Counted from the first letter of the stretch, positions 1,938-20,534 are shown. The stretch is DNA of 64,000 bases from Pirellulales bacterium (GCA_028066355.1 JALCBP010000006.1:10719-74718), one strand, 5' to 3'. Made by a program: numbers and translations. Notes: generated by a model from the sequence alone, not told the origin.

Positions 1938-3590
1938 ATGAGCATTTATGTCTTTGGGCACCGAAACCCCGATACAGATGCAATCTGTTCCGCAATTGCC
2001 TACGCCGACCTCCTCCGCCAAACAGGAAAACCGGATGCACTGGCTGCCTGCTGCGGACCACCCAATAAACGTACAGAATATGTTCTCAAGACAGCGAACA
2101 CTGCTCCCCCAAAAATAATTATGGATGTTCGTCCTGAGATGGAAGATGTCTGCCGGAAGGAAACCATCACCGCATCTTTTGGAGACGCCTTTTTCGAAGC
2201 ATATCGACGCATGCAGGAATGGGACCTTCGAGCTATTCCTGTTGTCGATACGGAAAGCCGAGTCAACGGGGTCCTGTCAGTTCTCGATTTGATGGAACTC
2301 CTGTTCCGTGATGAAGGCGATCCAATTAAATCCCGAACAGTAACAACGAATCTAAAAAAAATCACAGAGGCCCTCGGTGGCTCCTTCCAGCATGAAGTTG
2401 ATCCCCAACGAAGTGATGAACTTCTTGTCATGGTCGGAGCAATGAGTTCTGACGGCTTCACTGAAAGAATGCAAAAGTTTGACAAGGATCGTGTCCTTGT
2501 TGTCTGCGGAGACAGACCGACTATACAACTGCCTGCCATTGAACAAGGTGTTCGCGGGCTTGTGATAACCGGTGGCTTTGCTCTCAGCCCGGGACTCATT
2601 GAACTGGCTAGGGCACGCGGTGTCTCGGTTCTATTAAGCCCCTTTGATACCGTCAACACAACAACAAGAATACGTTCCTCCCAGTTCATTGACCCTGCCG
2701 TGAATCGTCAGGTGGTTACACTGCCAGCAAAGATGAGAGTATCGGAAGCACGTGCAATCGTTGAACGCTCAAAACAACCCGTCTTTCCGGTAGTAGGAGA
2801 TGACGGACTGCTTGCTGGCATATCGTTTAAATCTGATGTCATCAATCCACCCCGGCCCAGGCTCGTCTTGGTTGACCACAACGAACTTGCCCAAGCGGTT
2901 GCAGGAATTGAAGACGCAGATGTTCTCGAAGTTCTTGATCATCATCGACTGGGAGGTGGGCTAAAATCATCGCAACCAATTCGTTTCGTGAATGAGCCGG
3001 TAGGATCAACGTGCACGCTCGTTGCACGACAATATCGAGATTCGGGAATCGAGCCAGACCAATCTATTGCACTCTGCATGGCGTCTGGGATTATCTCTGA
3101 CACTCTTTATTTACAGAGCCCAACGACCACTTCAGTTGATAGGGCAATGCTCGAATGGCTTAGGCAACGATGCCCCGTTGACCTCGATCAATTCGCACGA
3201 ACTTTTTTTGAAATTGGATCAGCACTCCGCACAAGCACGCCCGATGGTGTCGTTGAAGAGGATTGTAAAGAATTTACAGAGCGAGACATCCGCTTCTCAA
3301 TTTCGCAGATTGAGGAAACAGGATTTGATCTCTTCTGGGAAAGAAAAGATGAACTCCGAATCGCGTTGGTGGCCTACGCCAAGCAACACGAACTCGATTT
3401 TTCAGCCCTTTTGATCACTGACGTGGTAAGCAACGGGTCACTGCTTCTGTTGTCAAAGGAGACTGAAGCTTGGGAAGAGATAAATTACCCGCGAATCGAC
3501 CGAGGACTTTATGCACTAAAGAACGTGGTCAGCCGTAAAAAGCAACTTCTGCCTCTGGTGACGCAACTTATCCAGAGTGCGGTGCTTTAA
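1938..3590 (+). CDS. ppaC: Family II Mn-dependent inorganic pyrophosphatase with CBS-DRTGG-CBS regulatory insert
   Basis: Motifs GHRNPDTDAICS, LVDHNE, LDHHR, EPVGSTCT, GIISDT and C-terminal VSRKKQ. The central insert has CBS-like (IPVVD, FPVVG) and DRTGG-like (GDR...ITGG) segments. Confidence 0.92.
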   Translation: MSIYVFGHRNPDTDAICSAIAYADLLRQTGKPDALAACCGPPNKRTEYVLKTANTAPPKIIMDVRPEMEDVCRKETITASFGDAFFEAYRRMQEWDLRAIPVVDTESRVNGVLSVLDLMELLFRDEGDPIKSRTVTTNLKKITEALGGSFQHEVDPQRSDELLVMVGAMSSDGFTERMQKFDKDRVLVVCGDRPTIQLPAIEQGVRGLVITGGFALSPGLIELARARGVSVLLSPFDTVNTTTRIRSSQFIDPAVNRQVVTLPAKMRVSEARAIVERSKQPVFPVVGDDGLLAGISFKSDVINPPRPRLVLVDHNELAQAVAGIEDADVLEVLDHHRLGGGLKSSQPIRFVNEPVGSTCTLVARQYRDSGIEPDQSIALCMASGIISDTLYLQSPTTTSVDRAMLEWLRQRCPVDLDQFARTFFEIGSALRTSTPDGVVEEDCKEFTERDIRFSISQIEETGFDLFWERKDELRIALVAYAKQHELDFSALLITDVVSNGSLLLLSKETEAWEEINYPRIDRGLYALKNVVSRKKQLLPLVTQLIQSAVL

Positions 3591-3614
3591 ATACCATATA
3601 TTTTTGCTGTTCGT

Positions 3615-4613
3615 CTACTGAGCAACCGACTTGCTACCTTCCGCCGATCCACCGATTGGAGCACCTTCCGGGAGTGGCCGACAAGCAGCAGAGACTCCGA
3701 TGCGATGCAACTCCTCACGGACAGCACGATACTCTTCGAAACTATCTGGGTAGCACCAAAGCGTCACAGTCGTAGCAGGCGTAACACCAGCCAAAATTGT
3801 GCGAAATCGAGATTGACGCGCAAGAGCCTCATCCAACGTCTCGCCAATGTCATACCGGGCTGGCTTCACAACCCACTCACGACTACGAACAAATACCTGA
3901 CCTGCACTTCGATTAATTTGCACTTCGATAACATAATCCAGTGCAAAGTCCTGAATTGGACCGACCGTCTCAATTCTCGCCTCCATCGATGCTAAGGATC
4001 CGCCACTTTTACGCTGAGTGCGTGCCTTTGCTCTATCGAATAACTCTGTGAGCGGGATGTACGCAATACGCCCTGCAGCAAGGCGAAAATGTAATTCATC
4101 ACCTGTGACTGTCCGGCCCACTGGCGTTGGATAGGCAAGGAGTTCCTTTGTTGTCTGTGGAGCATGGGCAATACCTTCAGCCTCAAGGTTACACTGTTCA
4201 ATTTCGTCTTTGATCCGCTGGCTCTGAGCAGCCATCTCAACCTGCTTGGCTTTGTCTTTTTGTACTCTCTGTTTTTGATCTTCAACTTCTCGTTTTGTTG
4301 CTGAAACAGCCGTCGCCAAATGAATTCTTGCATTTCCAGCATCTGCCACGGTGACAGCGAGTTGTCTCCCTTGTTCATCAAGATCAACCAACTCGCTCTC
4401 GGACGCTACAACAGCATCCTCCAGACGGACAACTTCCATCATCAAATTCTCGAGATTCGGACTGTTGACCTCTTTTGGCTTTAACGAGATGCTCTGAACT
4501 CGGGCACCGATGACCATAACGAGAATAATGAGAATCCCAACAATATTAGTCACAATATCAAGGAATGAATCCTGACTCCCTGCATCAACACGGCTTCCAC
4601 GTTGTCTCATCAT
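3615..4613 (-). CDS. Single-pass membrane protein with ExbD/TolR-like TM helix (Asp retained), coiled coil and C-terminal globular domain
   Basis: 332 aa. Basic N-terminus, then DSFLDIVTNIVGILIILVMV, then a heptad-rich region. ATGA overlap with the upstream gene at 4610-4613. Confidence 0.7.
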   Translation of the reverse strand: MMRQRGSRVDAGSQDSFLDIVTNIVGILIILVMVIGARVQSISLKPKEVNSPNLENLMMEVVRLEDAVVASESELVDLDEQGRQLAVTVADAGNARIHLATAVSATKREVEDQKQRVQKDKAKQVEMAAQSQRIKDEIEQCNLEAEGIAHAPQTTKELLAYPTPVGRTVTGDELHFRLAAGRIAYIPLTELFDRAKARTQRKSGGSLASMEARIETVGPIQDFALDYVIEVQINRSAGQVFVRSREWVVKPARYDIGETLDEALARQSRFRTILAGVTPATTVTLWCYPDSFEEYRAVREELHRIGVSAACRPLPEGAPIGGSAEGSKSVAQ

Positions 4614-6733
4614 AACTCCACATCCTGACTGGCTGCTGTTTCAAGAGATGCTGTACGACGAAAGCGCCGCTTCGTTGGTTGAGAAGGCGGCAGCCGTTTG
4701 ACAGCATCGGAGGCCTGTTTCTGTCGGGTCTCAATACCGCTATCCGCTAGAAGCACCTGCACGTCTTCGCGTCGCTCACGCCCGTCTTCAGTCTCTGTGA
4801 GCACTAGCTCAGGCTTCCAATAAAGGCGGTCTCCAGCGAGCCCCCAACTGTCGACTCGACTACGAATCGCAAGAACAAGGGAATCGATGGATTGAACCGT
4901 CAACCCTGTGAGTGGAATACGATAGACAACACGCCTGCCGCTATCGTCAAACAGCCGTAACTCATCAGCAGCACACTCAATCTGAATTGGCCGAGTGATT
5001 GGGATATATCGCTGCGATGTTGCAAAACTTGCCCAGTCACTTCCTCTTGCCCCGGCAAGAGACCCGCCGGAACTGCTCTCACGCTCAGACGTCCCGTTTG
5101 CCATTTCAGATGAAGCTGGAGCTGATCCAACCTGAATTCCAACTGGCATTGGCATGCTGCCAGTAGATGAACTCGGAGAACCGCTGCCACTGCCACCCGC
5201 TGCTCCACCAGCCCCGTCAGCAAGTCCTTGACTCAATGAAGAGGATTGAGAAGAACCGTCGCTAACTCCACTATCACCCGAACCCTGCTGTTTGCCTGAT
5301 GACCCAGGTTCGCTCTCACTAATCGACCCTGTGTCTGTTCCGTTGGGATAAACCCCCATAGACCCATTTGATGTACCATGCCCATCATAGGAACCAGCGT
5401 CTGATGCCACCAGCTCACCACCCAAACCATTACCAAAATGTGATTGGTGTTCTTGAGCCCCAACTGCACCGCCAGGCTGTGCTACCCGCGAGCCACCGGT
5501 GAGACTACCCACCTCTGTATCCATACCGTTACCAAATCCAATCCCTGAATTACTACTACCACTTCCAAAGTGACTTCCACCACCAAACTCACCGGCGTTT
5601 AAGGGACGCCCAACAAGCTTACCAGTTGAAGATTGCTGCCCCGTCTTACCAACACTTTCCTGGCCCGTGGGGCTGTTCCCACCGCGTAGCGAACCACCTT
5701 GCTTCTGCTGCCTTGACCAGTCCCAACGAGACTGATCCCCAAGAACAGACGGTCCACCCACAGCGACTGCACCACCTCGCACAGAAGAAGCCCGGTACTG
5801 CGTTGCGACTGGCTTCTTCCTTCGTACAGCAGAACGAGTTTGCGCCAACCATTGCAGACGTTCACGAGCCTCATTTATGGCCTGCAATTCAACATCGCGT
5901 AACGCAAGGTCTTTTTCAGGAAAAGAGAGTCGCCAATCTTCCTCAATTAATTGATACCCAAAATCGCTACCCCAAGAAGCAATGGCGTCTCTCGCTGCAT
6001 AGTAGGCCATCACACCAGATGGCCGAACGAGTAACAGCGGATAAGGCCGCAGACCAGGATCATTTTTCGAAATGGACTGTCTTGCCAGATACTCACGTGC
6101 AGCTCGCAAACCACTCGCCAACGGATTGCCCGGCCCCGATGGACCTTCAAAGTCATCTGGATTCAGCCGAATACCTTCGGGCTGCAGAAATACTCCATCC
6201 AGACAGCATTCGATAAAAAGAGGACGACGATGTGTTCCCGAAGATCCTTGGTACGGTATGACTGCATACGCCGGCGGATTCGAATCTCTTTCTTTCCTTG
6301 CTTCATCAAGACTTTCACGTGCCGAAGCCAACTCTGCCTCAAGTTCACGCATTTCATCACTCGTGGTCACTGCAACTAGTTTGGCATCGAAAAGATCCTC
6401 TCTCACTTTCTGTAGAGCCTTAAGTTCCGCTGCCAAATTTCTTGAGTTATCTTCGATACCAGCTAGCTGAAGCCTCAGGGTCTCAAGTTCATCACTTGTC
6501 TTTGATCGCATCTCCTTTAACTGCTCAAGCCGCCATGAAAGACTATCTACTCTTCCTTGCAACTCTGCTTCCATTTGCATCGCCAGCTCGACTACTACTC
6601 TCTCGTCCTGCCGGCTGATGGAATTACCAAACAAGACCAATAAAACAAGCAGCGCACCCATCGTGCACAACAAAACTGCAAGAAAAGGGAAGAGCGAAAT
6701 AGCTATGCCCTCTCGTGTACGCGATCTTCTCAT
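4610..6733 (-). CDS. Single-pass membrane protein with ExbD-like TM helix (Asp replaced by Ala), coiled coil and two similar domains joined by a Gly/Ser-rich linker
   Basis: 707 aa. MRRSR...ISLFPFLAVLLCTMGALLVLLV. Internal similarity RPLFIECCLDGVFL vs RPIQIECAADELRL. ATGA overlaps at both ends. Confidence 0.7.
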   Translation of the reverse strand: MRRSRTREGIAISLFPFLAVLLCTMGALLVLLVLFGNSISRQDERVVVELAMQMEAELQGRVDSLSWRLEQLKEMRSKTSDELETLRLQLAGIEDNSRNLAAELKALQKVREDLFDAKLVAVTTSDEMRELEAELASARESLDEARKERDSNPPAYAVIPYQGSSGTHRRPLFIECCLDGVFLQPEGIRLNPDDFEGPSGPGNPLASGLRAAREYLARQSISKNDPGLRPYPLLLVRPSGVMAYYAARDAIASWGSDFGYQLIEEDWRLSFPEKDLALRDVELQAINEARERLQWLAQTRSAVRRKKPVATQYRASSVRGGAVAVGGPSVLGDQSRWDWSRQQKQGGSLRGGNSPTGQESVGKTGQQSSTGKLVGRPLNAGEFGGGSHFGSGSSNSGIGFGNGMDTEVGSLTGGSRVAQPGGAVGAQEHQSHFGNGLGGELVASDAGSYDGHGTSNGSMGVYPNGTDTGSISESEPGSSGKQQGSGDSGVSDGSSQSSSLSQGLADGAGGAAGGSGSGSPSSSTGSMPMPVGIQVGSAPASSEMANGTSERESSSGGSLAGARGSDWASFATSQRYIPITRPIQIECAADELRLFDDSGRRVVYRIPLTGLTVQSIDSLVLAIRSRVDSWGLAGDRLYWKPELVLTETEDGRERREDVQVLLADSGIETRQKQASDAVKRLPPSQPTKRRFRRTASLETAASQDVEL

Positions 6734-8031
6734 GCAACTTTCTCAACAGGGGTGCTATCCTGGGCCAGAACACCTGACTTGCCACTAGGCACCCCCGGGC
6801 TACGCGCCGCCAACAATTGCGTCGCCGCTGAGAGTGAAATAATCGCCTCCTCAAATCGGCCACTCGCCGTAACAGCATTCAGATTACTCTCGAGCCTTTG
6901 CTCCATCGCCACTATTTCATTCAACATTGAAATCACTTTCTCAAGGGCTGCAGACTGGGCTGCGACAGCTACCTGCTGTTTGTCAAATGCAATAGCAGCA
7001 TCAGCCATTGTCTGTCCCGCTAGCTCCCAACGACCATCTCGCTCATGTGCTAGCTGACGATGTGCCTCGACTAGTGACTCCCTCCACGAATCCAGAGTAT
7101 CTTCCAGAGATTCGGACAGTGTTTCTCGAAGATGTTCACTTAGACCACCAAAGACATTTTCAAGGCTACTTGAGGCAACGCTTTGAAGTTCTTTCCATGA
7201 CTGAGTCTGTGCCTCAATGAGTTGAGCCGAACTTCTTCCAACGGCATCTCCAAGTCGTGCCACAGCCAAAGCCGAACCATCTGCGATTCCTTCAGTCTGA
7301 AAACGACCTGCAAGTGAATCCCATGCCTGCTCGTCAACCTGATCGAGCAACGATTGCTCCATTCGCTCAATCACAAACTGCGTGAACATCAGTACCATCG
7401 ACAATGCCAATGCAGTCGCTGTCGTGTCAAAAGCGGTACCCAGCCCAGCAACTACACCTGAAATATTTTCGAGTTCCGTCGGTGATAGATTTGCTATCGC
7501 CACAGTTATTCCAATGACCGTCCCTAGGAAGCCCATGATCGGGATCGCCCAGACAATAAATCGAACGAGCCCATAGCTAGCATGAGCGCGAGCCCCATCC
7601 ACGTCGGCAAGATATTTGAGATGATCCTCAAGATCATCAGCTTTTCCGGTCCGTGTAACAAAGTCGAGACCATCACCGAGTCTTTTCGGAAGATAACCCT
7701 GTTCACCATTCACATTTTCGAGAAGATACGTTCGCAGACTGATCGCCTCAGAAGGATGCTGACCGCCCGACATTACAGCGGGCAAAGCACACCTCGACAA
7801 ACTATTTCTCTGGCGAATCGTACTCAACAGTTTCATCGCAAGACTGCTTAGACCTACACAGAACAATCCAACTTCTATGTACTCTACCCAGTGTCCCGCA
7901 AGATATCGCACAACGTAGCTGTTGCTTATAACTCCACGCTGAATCAACGAAAAAAAGCAAAAGGCCAAACCAGTACCCCACAACAGGGGCGATCGAAGTA
8001 GAAGTTTCGATATCTTAGTCAGGAACGACAC
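6730..8031 (-). CDS. MotA/TolQ/ExbB proton-channel family protein with long C-terminal helical tail
   Basis: AIPIMGFLGTVIGI and GLGTAFDTTATALAL match the TolQ/ExbB TM signatures. GTG start preceded by GGAGG. About 200 residues of helical tail follow the last TM. Confidence 0.88.
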   Translation of the reverse strand: MSFLTKISKLLLRSPLLWGTGLAFCFFSLIQRGVISNSYVVRYLAGHWVEYIEVGLFCVGLSSLAMKLLSTIRQRNSLSRCALPAVMSGGQHPSEAISLRTYLLENVNGEQGYLPKRLGDGLDFVTRTGKADDLEDHLKYLADVDGARAHASYGLVRFIVWAIPIMGFLGTVIGITVAIANLSPTELENISGVVAGLGTAFDTTATALALSMVLMFTQFVIERMEQSLLDQVDEQAWDSLAGRFQTEGIADGSALAVARLGDAVGRSSAQLIEAQTQSWKELQSVASSSLENVFGGLSEHLRETLSESLEDTLDSWRESLVEAHRQLAHERDGRWELAGQTMADAAIAFDKQQVAVAAQSAALEKVISMLNEIVAMEQRLESNLNAVTASGRFEEAIISLSAATQLLAARSPGVPSGKSGVLAQDSTPVEKVA

Positions 8032-8413
8032 TGGGCACCTCCGTGAACGGAATTATTCGATACGGTCTCTCTCACACAAGACGTGGAATTTGTTCCTTTA
8101 TCGGAAATCTTTACCCACATGTTTGAATCCAAATATCCACTGCAGTCGTTTTTCCTGGCAGTGAGATCCGTGACCAAGAGAGCAGGGCAGGCTAGGGAAG
8201 CATGGGAGGGCAGGGAGACCACGGACTTCCCGACTGGAACAAGCTGGCACGGTGAATTTCGGGCTGTCGCAGAATGTATCCGCCCTGCAATACTCTATTT
8301 CTTAACTAAGTAGATCAACGACTCAAAAGCCCTCTTCGCTGCTTGAAGGATGTTTGCACACTCATCACTTTGAAAGCACAAGAGACACTCAAGCTCACCC
8401 GGAACCGCAAACC

Positions 8414-8791
8414 ATGAAATCACGAAAGTATTGTCTTCAAGTACTTGCTGGAGTGGCATTATTTATGTCACTTCCGATATCCAACGCTCTGGCGTCAGAA
8501 ACTGAAGCACTGATCGTTTCGACGGTGCCGATTGATTCCGGACGACAAATGCTTCTCGTTATCAACACGGAAACAAACATCCTTGCCGTCTATCACATTG
8601 AAACTGGAAGTGGCGAAATTTCACTTCGCAGCACCCGCGCAATTGGATACGACCTCCAACTTGAGGACTTCAACGCTAAAGACCCGAAACCAGCCGCTAT
8701 AAAAAAAATGCTGCGGATTGACTCATCTCCCAGCCTTCCAGCCAATAGGATCGAGATAATCCCACCTTCTACGACTCAATCCAGCAGGTAA
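8414..8791 (+). CDS. Small exported hypothetical protein
   Basis: ATG at 8414 gives a signal peptide (MKSRKYCLQVLAGVALFMSLPISNALA) followed by a beta-rich domain (MLLVIN...LAVYHI...ISLRSTR). Confidence 0.7.
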   Translation: MKSRKYCLQVLAGVALFMSLPISNALASETEALIVSTVPIDSGRQMLLVINTETNILAVYHIETGSGEISLRSTRAIGYDLQLEDFNAKDPKPAAIKKMLRIDSSPSLPANRIEIIPPSTTQSSR

Positions 8792-9012: not shown

Positions 9013-10452
9013 ATGGCTGGTGGGTTTCTCGACATTGCTGAAGCGGCAGCGCATCTCAATATTTCAGAAGATGCAGTCAAACAACTCGTTGACCAGCGGA
9101 AACTTTTTTCACTGAGGGACACATCCGGCCTTAAATTCAAACGTGAGGAACTCGATCGTTACCTAGAGGATCAGAAAGATATTCTTGCCACAGATGGAAC
9201 GGCCCCGGGAAACACAGAGAGTGGCCTCTCACTAGATGGATTAGAACTCGATCTCTCTGATAGTGAGTCCACAAGTCAAGAAAACAATGCACAGCAGCCG
9301 AATGCTGATGCACCTGCGAACGTTAACGAAGAGCAACCTGGCTCTGAAATCGGACTCGGTGAACTTGAACTTGAATCTGGCCTGTCACTCGCAGAAGGCA
9401 GCAATATTGATGATGGACCAGCAATTGAGGCGACTGGTATTCTGCCCGCTCAAGAAGCAGAAGCATCATTACTGATCGGTGGGGACCTTGATAGTTCAGA
9501 CATTGATGTTCCTGCAACTTTACTCGGAACAAATGAAGAATTTTCTCAAGCACAAGACAAAGACATCTCACCACAAGAGCAAGACATTGAGGCTGCCTCG
9601 AGTGATGCGCTTGGTAAATCAGTTGACATCAGTGGAATCGATATTGATCTGAGCGGTGTTGACATCGCGGATTCCGCTGCCGCAGAAGAACCCGCACAAA
9701 GTCTGGTGCTCGGTGATTCCCTCGCTGGTGATATTGAGAGCATCGTTGCGAGTGATATTTTTATCGATGAAGGGTTGGCGTCCGCCGTATTTGAAACAGA
9801 TGGATCTGGGAGCGTCGTCATACAGGATAGTGGTAGTATAGAGGCTAGCAATTCAAGTGATTTTATTGACGACAATGAAACGAGTGGCATTATTGATTCG
9901 GACCCTTTAAGCGATGGTTCTGACATTGGAAGCGCTATCTCAGACGTCAAAATGGAGGGGGGGCTTTCACTTGAGGATGGGAAAATTCAGGCATGGGACG
10001 TTGATCTAGGAGAATTTCTCAATGATGTTGAGGACGACCCTGATGCTGCAACCATGTTGGGTACCGCAAATGACTTTGATCTTGATGCTGAGGGTTCGTC
10101 AACGGATGACCCGAGTCAATCAGCCGATCTAGCTTCGTCTCAGGCTGGCGATTCAATGTTCGATAAATCAGCAGGTCCTGGTGATTCAAGCTTCTTCGGT
10201 GATGAGGTGGGACAGGATGCGGCACCACTGACAGCAGCTTCAGATATGCTCTCGAGCTCATTTGCTCTCATGGGCGACGACGCGAGATTTAATAGCTTAC
10301 AGGTAACAGGTCTCATCTGTTGTGCGTTGCTGTTACTCGTCGGTGGCCTCCTGACGTTTGATCTTGTCAGAACTATCGGAAGTTCGGCAGACACCTCATT
10401 GTCGAATCCACTGGTTGGCAGTCTTTCACAGCTTTTTGGATGGCGCCAGTAG
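9013..10452 (+). CDS. Excisionase-like HTH domain, long acidic low-complexity region and C-terminal TM anchor
   Basis: N-terminal FLDIAEAAAHLNISEDAVKQLVDQRKL...KFKREELDRYL (HTH_17-like). D/E/S/G-rich middle. Hydrophobic LQVTGLICCALLLLVGGLLTF near the C-terminus. Confidence 0.85.
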   Translation: MAGGFLDIAEAAAHLNISEDAVKQLVDQRKLFSLRDTSGLKFKREELDRYLEDQKDILATDGTAPGNTESGLSLDGLELDLSDSESTSQENNAQQPNADAPANVNEEQPGSEIGLGELELESGLSLAEGSNIDDGPAIEATGILPAQEAEASLLIGGDLDSSDIDVPATLLGTNEEFSQAQDKDISPQEQDIEAASSDALGKSVDISGIDIDLSGVDIADSAAAEEPAQSLVLGDSLAGDIESIVASDIFIDEGLASAVFETDGSGSVVIQDSGSIEASNSSDFIDDNETSGIIDSDPLSDGSDIGSAISDVKMEGGLSLEDGKIQAWDVDLGEFLNDVEDDPDAATMLGTANDFDLDAEGSSTDDPSQSADLASSQAGDSMFDKSAGPGDSSFFGDEVGQDAAPLTAASDMLSSSFALMGDDARFNSLQVTGLICCALLLLVGGLLTFDLVRTIGSSADTSLSNPLVGSLSQLFGWRQ

Positions 10453-19169: not shown

Positions 19170-20534
19170 ATGCAAAGTTCTGTTACTCCAAGTCCAACTA
19201 CTATCGACGTACGCGAACTCATTATCGGCAGCGGTCCATTTGGCCCCAACGAAGTTCGGGCGATTGCTGACTCACTTGGAACCAACACGGATACCCACCG
19301 AGAACTAAGGCTAACTGTCCAGGAACTTCAACAGGTCAGCGACCTGAGCCCAGCAGCGTCCGTTCGCCTTGGCGTCGCCCTATACCTACTCGGGCGGAGT
19401 AGTGAAGCCGTCGTATCACTTAAATCTGGTGATGGTTCAGCGCTTGCCCTATTTGCACTCGGCCTAGCTCAAGCTGCTCTTGCTGCAGCCGACGATGCGT
19501 GTGCTTCTTTTGATGCGGCCCGAACAGCAGGATATCCCGCCGGCGCATGCCTCGCCGCGCAAGCGAATACGCTGCGTGCGGCGAACAGACTTGAGGAGGC
19601 TGTTGCCGTATTGAGCAACGCCACCGATGAAGAAAAGTCATCGGCTGAATACCTCGCCGCGCAGGGGGCTATTGCGGTCGAGCGTGGTGATTCTGTCGCA
19701 GACACACTCAATATACTTGAGAAGGCGGTCGAAAGTGACAGTGGCCAACCACTTGCTTTGTTCTGCCTTGGCGTACTCCACGACAGAATCGGTAATGACG
19801 ATGAAGCAATAGACTGTTACCAACGTTCGCTGCTCAGATATCCTGCAACGGTCGGGGCACTCATGAACCTCGGTCTTCTCTACGAGGATCGTGATGACTT
19901 TTCTCAGGCTCAGCAGTGTTACCGAAGAATTCTCGATGGCCTCCCGATTGATGCACCGGGTCGAGAAGAAGCTATTTCCCGTGCAAAGCTTTTCCTCAAG
20001 GATTCTGCGGCATCTGGTGATCGACAACTCGATGAGCAGGAGCAGCGACAGCGTGACCGACTCGAGCAGGTACTCGCACTCCCAGTAAGTGACTTTGAGC
20101 TTTCAGTTCGGAGCCGCAATTGCTTGGCAAAAATGGGCATCCAAACATTGGGCGACCTCACGCAGACTAGTGAAGCGGATGTACTAGCCAGCAAGAACTT
20201 CGGTGAAACTAGCCTTGTTGAAATCAAAGACATTCTTGCGTCAAAGGGACTCCTGCTCGGTCAGTTTGCAACACCATCAATGGCTGCAGAATCCTCACCG
20301 AACTTCGATGAACCTGTTGGCGAACAAACTGAAATTCATGGACTGCCAGTCACGGAACTCAACCTTTCCGTTCGCGCGAGAAAATGCACCACCAAGCTTG
20401 GCATCATGACCATTGGTGAGTTAGTTCGTAGAACGGCAGAGGATCTTATGGAATGCAAAAACTTTGGAGTAACGAGCCTCAACGAAGTTCGTGAGAGACT
20501 TGGCGAACGAGGACTAAAGCTTCGGGGCGAGTAG
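19170..20534 (+). CDS. TPR-repeat protein with two RNA polymerase alpha-subunit C-terminal domains
   Basis: TPR-like helices (ALFCLGVLHDRIG..EAIDCYQRSL; ALMNLGLLYED). Then PVSDFELSVRSRNCL...KNFGETSLVEIKDILASKGL and PVTELNLSVRARKC...KNFGVTSLNEVRERL. There is no alpha N-terminal domain. Confidence 0.9.
   Translation: MQSSVTPSPTTIDVRELIIGSGPFGPNEVRAIADSLGTNTDTHRELRLTVQELQQVSDLSPAASVRLGVALYLLGRSSEAVVSLKSGDGSALALFALGLAQAALAAADDACASFDAARTAGYPAGACLAAQANTLRAANRLEEAVAVLSNATDEEKSSAEYLAAQGAIAVERGDSVADTLNILEKAVESDSGQPLALFCLGVLHDRIGNDDEAIDCYQRSLLRYPATVGALMNLGLLYEDRDDFSQAQQCYRRILDGLPIDAPGREEAISRAKLFLKDSAASGDRQLDEQEQRQRDRLEQVLALPVSDFELSVRSRNCLAKMGIQTLGDLTQTSEADVLASKNFGETSLVEIKDILASKGLLLGQFATPSMAAESSPNFDEPVGEQTEIHGLPVTELNLSVRARKCTTKLGIMTIGELVRRTAEDLMECKNFGVTSLNEVRERLGERGLKLRGE

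Follow-up and report, generated by a model that had tools for sequence, protein, structure and literature searches.

Known ion-driven motors of the MotAB, ExbBD, TolQR and ZorAB kind have been described as carrying two identical axle helices, each with an essential Asp, and current rotary models use both in turn. A 64,000-nt stretch of DNA, here called the window, from the metagenome-assembled genome (95.5% complete) of a Pirellulales bacterium (Planctomycetota) contains three head-to-tail genes, A, B1 and B2, that raise the question of how such a machine might be built when its two partner subunits are unequal and only one of them carries that Asp. All three genes lie on the minus strand:

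6730..8031, minus strand: gene A, membrane subunit of the MotA/ExbB family (433 aa, GTG start), from its open reading frame (ORF) and translation.
4610..6733, minus strand: gene B1 (707 aa), with a basic N-terminus, one transmembrane (TM) helix, a coiled coil, domain D1, a Gly/Ser-rich linker and domain D2, from translation, alignment and model.
3615..4613, minus strand: gene B2 (332 aa), with a basic N-terminus, a TM helix with Asp19, a coiled coil and an alpha/beta C-terminal domain, from translation, alignment and model.
6730..6733, minus strand: ATGA overlap of the A stop and the B1 start, recurring as a 4-base overlap in most related loci.
4610..4613, minus strand: ATGA overlap of the B1 stop and the B2 start.

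An earlier reading of the window, made from the sequence alone (the sequence-only reading), had described three co-oriented genes joined by two ATGA overlaps; its coordinates, strand and overlaps were all correct, and so was every other particular of its observation. The overlaps suggest that translation of the trio is coupled, and a Shine-Dalgarno GGAGG lies a few bases upstream of the GTG of A (8031). Our answer to the question, to which we give about an even chance as regards the architecture and less as regards the role, is that the trio would be an ion-driven machine of the MotA/ExbB type, in which a ring of A encloses a B1:B2 heterodimer that serves as a one-Asp axle.

The link to a known family is provided by A. 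Its product matched Pfam family PF01618 (MotA_ExbB) with an E-value of 1.2e-10 and 41.7 bits (gathering cut-off 22.9) over residues 130-231, and on the strength of this match A is a member of the MotA/ExbB/TolQ family, one of only three PF01618 genes in the whole genome. Three features of the gene are needed here:

7366..7563, minus strand: last two TM helices of A (residues ~157-222), with Thr171, Asp202 and Thr203/Thr204, from the alignment.
7426..7428, minus strand: codon of Asp202, in the AFDTT motif of the last helix (of 74 genomes, 69 have Asp here and 4 have Asn).
6733..7335, minus strand: C-terminal tail of A (residues ~233-433), with a conserved end motif at ~380-407, from alignment conservation.

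The PF01618 match and the position of Asp202 in the last helix agree with the sequence-only reading, which had pointed out TolQ/ExbB signatures, an Asp in AFDTT and about 200 extra residues. T171, D202, T203 and T204 were nearly invariant among 27 aligned sequences. A profile alignment to ExbB (6ye4) placed T171 and T204 opposite the two conserved threonines of ExbB, and we take both to be pore-lining threonines around the Asp of the partner. D202 fell opposite a Leu in the same alignment, and the equivalent residue is Trp in the Zorya protein ZorA (8vvi). The tail, presumably cytoplasmic and helical, matched in the PDB only coiled-coil or helical chains and the tail of a type II ZorA (8vvi, E 1.3e-3). 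A flagellar stator was considered and rejected: none of the three PF01618 genes has flagellar neighbours in the regions read.

The partners B1 and B2 are organised as follows:

6629..6697, minus strand: B1 TM helix (residues ~13-35), with invariant F15, F17, L21, C23, M25, G26, L28 and L32; the Ala19 codon is 6677-6679.
6284..6601, minus strand: B1 coiled-coil stalk (residues ~45-150), with Pfam and PDB matches to coiled coil only and heptad-spaced contacts to B2 in the model.
5837..6223, minus strand: B1 domain D1 (residues 171-299), predicted as beta-beta-beta-alpha-beta-alpha-beta plus a helix (model pLDDT ~90).
5060..5818, minus strand: B1 Gly/Ser-rich low-complexity linker (residues ~306-558), of varying length among relatives by alignment (pLDDT <50).
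4721..5059, minus strand: B1 domain D2 (residues 559-671), predicted with a D1-like topology (model pLDDT ~94).
4491..4571, minus strand: B2 TM helix (residues 15-41), with invariant D15, S16, F17, D19, V21, N23, V25 and G26; the Asp19 codon is 4557-4559.
4164..4454, minus strand: B2 coiled-coil stalk (residues 54-150), a single continuous helix in the model with in-register contacts to B1.
3645..4097, minus strand: B2 C-terminal alpha/beta domain (residues 173-323), with pLDDT mostly 80-93, touching B1 D1 in the complex model.

Behind a basic N-terminus, B1 reads ISLFPFLAVLL (Ala19) and B2 reads SQDSFLDIVT (Asp19), so that the translations agree with what had been noticed earlier, namely a basic patch and one TM helix in each partner and an Ala19 versus Asp19 difference. 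Profile comparison by hhalign shows that the two N-termini are homologous and align without a register shift across 42 columns (E 4.3e-6), an alignment that pairs residue 19 of one with residue 19 of the other. B1 and B2 have the same spacing between helix and globular domain, and in the second family examined it is longer in both; over 21 diverse loci the two spacings co-varied (Pearson 0.95, Spearman 0.75), a correlation that is mostly a contrast between two clades of relatives that are not independent. D1 and D2 of B1 have a short motif in common (hhalign E 4e-5, 19 columns), and many representative proteins match the D1 profile in two stretches; hhalign of D1 and D2 against the C-terminal domain of B2 was not significant (E 0.22 and 0.16, respectively).

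The Asp/Ala split was then read across relatives. Asp19 of B2 was found in 80 out of 80 close loci and in all 55 genomes where it was readable. Ala19 of B1 was present in 56 out of 56 close loci, the other 24 lacking the B1 start, which ruled out a local mutation or sequencing error as its origin. Among the 150 best representative proteins, 26 were truncated and 124 were readable (117 by pattern and 7 by eye); these showed Ala in 115 cases, Asp in 6, Glu in 2 and Gly in 1. The split is therefore conserved, and homologues of the Ala-type partner do not usually carry an Asp.

Variation at B1 position 19 is accompanied by variation at residue 202 of A. In a survey of 77 genomes, both positions were readable in 74, and the A202/B1-19 pair was Asp/Ala in 65 of them. 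Asn/Asp occurred in 4, and every A with Asn202 paired with a B1 carrying Asp19; in two of these four genomes A no longer adjoins B1-B2. The remaining pairs were Asp/Ser in 2, Asp/Thr in 1 and Asp/Asp in 1, whose adjacent A also lacks T171, T203 and T204, while the 74th genome was a spurious match (57.8 bits). This pattern fits an arrangement, deduced from covariation, in which position 19 of B1 would lie beside residue 202 of A inside the ring and an acidic group would be needed on either subunit. Genome G025 (L219, L214) has two A genes: the one adjacent to B1 reads ADAL at 171, 202, 203 and 204, next to a B1 with Asp19, and the second, on another contig, is intact and of a divergent subtype.

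The sequence-only reading had called the trio an orphan. Instead, the trio belongs to the core genes of the class Planctomycetia. Homologues of A were detected in 39 out of 41 related genomes. Of 17 family- and order-level loci, 15 showed the collinear order A-B1-B2, as did 8 of 9 loci from another family of the class and one further order-level genome; this collinearity is far above chance and answers the earlier question of synteny in relatives. Of 201 genomes from the class, 164 matched the B1 D1 profile (E <= 1e-8), spread over 18 of its 19 families, nearly always with one match per genome and with a patchy presence in one family (11 of 41 genomes). Against 1.84 billion representative proteins, the same profile gave 2,542 matches at E <= 0.001, 1,354 of them at E <= 1e-30. 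In a 301-genome sample of the phylum, full-length B2 was restricted to the order of the window and to one more family in the class (14 of its 15 genomes), and other weak B2 matches spanned little beyond the coiled coil. Where B2 homologues bear a name, it is hypothetical protein or, for a few of them, 'nucleoid-associated protein YgaU', which looks mistaken. The genes that flank the trio vary by lineage and are housekeeping genes (14 related loci).

The genome that contains the window also holds a diverged paralogous trio on another contig (L041, G000:C166:8000-20000, positions 3595-8595). Its A' has 540 aa, an N-terminal zinc ribbon and the motif SFDTT; B1' has 298 aa, an Asp at the equivalent of position 19 and a single globular domain; and B2', of 383 aa, also carries the Asp and is followed by a signal peptidase S26-like gene. 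The paralogous arrangement was also found in G230 (L134), with Ser in B1' and Asn in A'. At another locus, L127 (G295:C5, 2871-4961), a B1 orthologue has a B2-looking N-terminus (GSFLDVLCNMVGI, with Asp) and no A gene occurs in the 2.8 kb upstream; this protein may be a chimera of both partners.

We next considered how B1 and B2 might pair. A complex prediction of B1 (residues 1-310) with full-length B2, made with alignments, reached an ipSAE of 0.74 (0.71-0.77 in three runs), against 0.00 for the best of three controls; in the calibration of this score, 116 of 157 solved complexes attained such a value, as did 2 of 215 mismatched pairs. Between runs, at least 77% of the contacts agreed, with a partner pLDDT of at least 80. 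The modelled pair is parallel and in register, running from the TM helices into the coiled coil and ending in a contact between B1 D1 and the C-terminal domain of B2. The prediction thus supports a parallel B1:B2 heterodimer. Position 19 lies outside the B1:B2 interface of the model, so that it would face outward. As for the earlier proposal of two unequal partners acting as the axle, the in-register homology of the helices and the complex model speak for the heterodimer, the model being a prediction of pairing and not a demonstration of binding.

The fold of the periplasmic domains adds a weaker clue. D1 matched Escherichia coli TolR (5by4_A; Z 6.8, root-mean-square deviation (rmsd) 5.1, 88 aligned residues) at rank 3, the sole structural match on D1 within the top 50, and D2 matched Haemophilus influenzae TolR (2jwk; Z 5.3, rmsd 3.2, 72 of 74 residues aligned), although RNase H-like folds score similarly and all these Z values are below 8, a range in which chance arrangements are frequent. 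A TolR-like fold of the B1 domains is thus only hinted at by the models. Foldseek, which had been proposed as a check, found no match at E <= 0.001 for the whole B2 model (pLDDT 78.8; searched against the PDB) or for the B1 D1+D2 model, whose top rows were ribosomal protein uS11 (E ~0.008). A wide structural search with the B2 model was filled with coiled coils over residues 44-155, and PDB profile searches with the B1 and B2 alignments returned coiled-coil proteins only. In the ESM Atlas, the C-terminal domain of B2 and D1 of B1 fell in unnamed clusters only, with scores <0.9, and the C-terminal domain of B2 matched no named family in Pfam, the ESM Atlas or representative-protein searches. 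B1 and B2 showed no family beyond coiled-coil noise in Pfam, NCBIfam and PADLOC, and Pfam searches with isolated domains and TM segments gave nothing relevant. One candidate, NCBIfam PRK09039 for the B2 N-terminus, scored 23.4 bits against a cut-off of 388 and led nowhere.

The family membership of A, the conservation and synteny of the trio, the helix homology and the Asp/Ala pattern with its swap are direct readings. From them and the modelled B1:B2 pairing we infer the pentamer, its rotation, the path and specificity of the ion, the direction of the force, its target and the cellular role, as follows. The trio would form one inner-membrane machine of the MotA/ExbB/TolQ kind, with a ring of five A copies by analogy with the family. 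The ring pore would hold a parallel B1:B2 heterodimer instead of the usual homodimer, in which B2 would contribute the canonical mid-membrane Asp and B1 would offer an Ala at the same place. Asp202 of A, beside the conserved threonine ring, would supply the other acidic residue on the path of the ion; the retention of the A ring threonines and the invariance of the B2 Asp are the signature expected of an active ion path. Outside the membrane, B1 and B2 would form a coiled-coil stalk some 100 residues long with two touching globular domains at its tip, and B1 would run on along a disordered linker of roughly 250 residues as far as D2, which may bind a partner in the wall or outer envelope. Ion flow would then turn the ring relative to the axle, pulling or repositioning the tethered D2, and the long tail of A, which would be cytoplasmic like those of other members of the family, might act there. 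The cellular role would lie in some envelope process.

Several observations weigh against this architecture. Current models of 5:2 motors make the two aspartates act alternately, and therefore an axle with a single Asp may be unable to rotate. The complex model covers the B1:B2 heterodimer only; structure predictors pair coiled coils easily, and the three controls were unrelated natural proteins and not other coiled coils. The partners had also been called ExbD-like, a description that their sequences did not sustain. PF02472 (ExbD) gave no match at E up to 10 with B1 or B2, whole or in fragments, and in a six-frame search of the genome it found only two canonical ExbD genes, beside ExbB on another contig. 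Alignments of B1 and B2 by hhalign to 24 local ExbD sequences were not significant (E 0.026-0.24, with 0.064 and 0.12 among the values), although these short alignments still put position 19 on the ExbD aspartate, and the N-terminus of the paralogue B1' had a sub-threshold ExbD match (E 0.068). The canonical ExbB-ExbD-ExbD cluster (L042, G000:C114:119000-129000, positions 3955-5777) keeps the Asp in both ExbD copies and has a masked X stretch just upstream.

The evolutionary record adds to these objections. The four A proteins with Asn202 and one Asp202 copy formed a single clade (SH-aLRT 100, one change) in a quick, unfinished tree, which makes the Asn202/Asp19 swap a single evolutionary event. 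The idea that the Asp of A complements the missing Asp of B1 is accordingly favoured by the four Asn202 genomes, all with Asp19 in B1, and weakened by their common origin. Moreover, the paralogous trios break the A202/B1-19 rule, with Asp/Asp in the genome of the window, Asn/Ser in G230 and Asp/Ser in G522. Finally, the B1-like and B2-like genes of family f126 lie side by side, have helices without the conserved motif and the Asp, and are not adjoined by an A gene (5 out of 5 loci, L197-L201); each f126 genome has one strong A-like match elsewhere (E 1e-23 to 1e-28). Evidently, to judge from these gene orders, a periplasmic pair can exist without an A motor.

The explanation that survives best beside the heteromeric one-Asp axle is a division of labour in the Tol/Ton style, in which a B2 homodimer, equivalent to TolR/ExbD and with two Asp, would occupy the pore and B1 would stand outside the ring as a TolA/TonB-like transducer. 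We consider it unlikely. It accounts well for the three-part layout of B1 (TM helix, long low-complexity linker and globular end domain), for the lack of an Asp in the 115 representatives with Ala19, and for the lack of any Pfam match to TonB_C or TolB_N in the genome that could serve other motors. The end domain of B1 itself gave no Pfam TonB_C match. The B1 helix argues otherwise, being homologous in register to the pore-type helix of B2 and having neither a His nor a motif of the SHLS type (as this motif is defined in PMC12204202, section 8). In addition, the stalks of B1 and B2 are matched in length and were modelled as closely packed parallel partners all the way out from the membrane, and some B1 proteins carry Asp or Glu at position 19.

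A second alternative, rather improbable in our judgement, is that B1:B2 is a structural periplasmic scaffold that organises the wall or envelope, with A as a regulatory or gating ion channel or an anchor and not a rotary motor. Since the f126 pair lacks an adjacent A, the helix motif and the Asp in all five loci, a mainly structural role stays alive as a rival, and two further genomes, G510 and G522, have A elsewhere; the sheer size of the B1-D1 family, with its 2,542 representatives, points the same way. A dedicated motor explains better why the trio is collinear over most of the class with a widely kept A/B1 overlap, and why the ring threonines of A are kept and the Asp of B2 is invariant. 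As to a Zorya-like anti-phage sensor, in which a long-tailed ZorA-type ring and a wall-anchored partner would signal to cytoplasmic effectors, this is highly improbable: the weak ZorA matches over the last helices and tail (PADLOC ZorA2, E 1.7e-6; NCBIfam ZorA_4, E 9.1e-6) and the fact that 8vvi is the closest solved chain by sequence (E 1.3e-3) are set against 24.8 bits with NF033917 (curated cut-off 500), no adjacent zorC/zorD/zorE-like or other defence gene among window neighbours and 14 related flanks, a near-universal, single-copy set of core genes among housekeeping flanks and not a sporadic defence island, and a pair of unlike partners in place of the ZorB homodimer of Zorya.

Returning to the heteromeric one-Asp axle, it can be carried further into a conjecture that we find quite unlikely as a whole: the trio might be Planctomycetia's own self-contained counterpart of TolQ-TolR-TolA, with the transducer (B1 linker and D2) fused to one half of a heteromeric axle and the proton path split between Asp19 of B2 and Asp202 of A. 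It would be the first natural MotA/ExbB-type motor on one axle Asp, and it would perhaps serve outer-envelope tethering or constriction in budding division. The division of this class, which lacks FtsZ, is poorly understood, and so is its cell envelope, to which the trio is relevant as one of the most widely conserved unannotated envelope gene sets of the class. If true, a near-universal heteromeric one-Asp axle would be a direct natural test of rotary models, and another would be the lineage whose acidic residue returned from the ring to the second axle helix.

With respect to the surroundings of the operon, the neighbours of the trio in the window are a sulfatase, a CBS-DHH pyrophosphatase, a small ORF, an HTH_17 protein and ComEC. 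As stated in the sequence-only reading, none of the window neighbours is a tonB, tolA, flagellar or zorC/D/E gene, according to Pfam, PADLOC and NCBIfam. The small ORF and the HTH_17 gene lie divergently upstream of A, and the first is also found, with 30-34% identity, together with the second upstream of the trio in L037, L039 and L128; the pair may be a conserved neighbour or a regulator. Their coordinates, and those of a third gene of unusual architecture, are the following:

8354-8788, plus strand: small ORF, 145 aa, with a hydrophobic N-terminus.
9013-10449, plus strand: HTH_17 (excisionase-type) protein, 479 aa.
19170-20531, plus strand: 454-aa protein with TPR repeats and two RNA polymerase alpha C-terminal domains (PF03118, E 5.7e-40).

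A sigma-70 promoter scan gave 0 sites, and no terminator-like site was seen 3' of B2. Four RNA-labelled runs from four studies contained 13 short contigs (171-369 bases, at least 90% identity) that cover parts of all three genes, none of the 13 spanning a gene junction by 31 bases. This hints at the presence of the operon or close relatives in marine or sediment samples (window 3400-8400; runs X1, X2, X3 and X8; metatranscriptome-labelled libraries).

How does the trio compare with known systems? Membership of a known family comes through A (MotA/ExbB) only; B1 and B2 do not qualify as ExbD/TolR by sequence, nor does the trio qualify as Zorya, TolA/TonB or AglRQS. In its way of working, the trio would most resemble the Tol/Ton motors and the tolQ-like genes that are accompanied by heterologous vWA pore-helix pairs. 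With Tol/Ton it shares a MotA/ExbB/TolQ-family subunit with both pore threonines, single-pass partners with a basic N-terminus, the mid-membrane Asp (in B2 only), weak TolR-like fold matches of the B1 domains and, as in TolA/TonB, a long linker and terminal domain in B1. Unlike in Tol/Ton, the two axle candidates differ from each other, one being without the Asp, and neither B1 nor B2 has a Pfam ExbD match; both partners bear a coiled coil some 100 residues long, and the linker and end domain that resemble those of a transducer sit on the candidate axle protein itself. A ends in a tail of some 200 residues, and its Asp stands two positions ahead of the ring Thr. TonB_C and TolB_N have no match in the genome. 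The B1 helix also differs from TolA/TonB in lacking the SHLS/His motif for binding outside the ring.

In GldL-GldM, the motor of gliding and type IX secretion, the key acidic residue is on the ring subunit, a placement that the trio would share through Asp202 of A. The candidate axle of the trio resembles that system, compared by description only, in being a long periplasmic shaft, which in GldM reaches 18 nm (PMC9389320); it differs from it in that GldM is a homodimer and no gliding or type IX secretion genes adjoin the trio. The likeness to ZorA-ZorB, which form a 5:2 complex according to the abstract of PMC11890865, lies in a MotA/ExbB-type subunit with a long C-terminal tail, 8vvi being weakly the closest solved sequence, whereas the trio has no effector genes nearby, a core-gene distribution, heteromeric partners in which no peptidoglycan-binding domain was detected, and profile scores far below the cut-offs. 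In Myxococcus AglR-AglQ-AglS, too, a single ring gene is combined with two MotB/TolR-like partners that differ from each other. PMC9389320 ascribes a conserved Asp to AglQ as well as to AglS and leaves undecided whether they form hetero- or homodimers, whereas B1 normally has Ala and the stalks, linker and tail have no AglRQS counterpart.

A printed precedent is found in PMC12204202 (section 8), which describes tolQ-like genes without tolR/exbD, mainly in Proteobacteria and Verrucomicrobia, followed by two different vWA proteins that start with a pore helix, and proposes that force is transduced directly from inside the pentamer. The trio likewise joins a tolQ-like gene to two different proteins that begin with a pore-type helix, and this precedent counts for a heteromeric axle. 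It departs from the vWA pairs, both members of which keep the Asp, in having one helix without it and domains that match no Pfam family. Our literature searches, which left supplementary files outside their scope, returned no description of the trio. Taken together, the comparison presents it as an unannotated, strongly conserved system whose new feature would be a MotA/ExbB motor that combines a heteromeric axle bearing one Asp with a second Asp on the ring.

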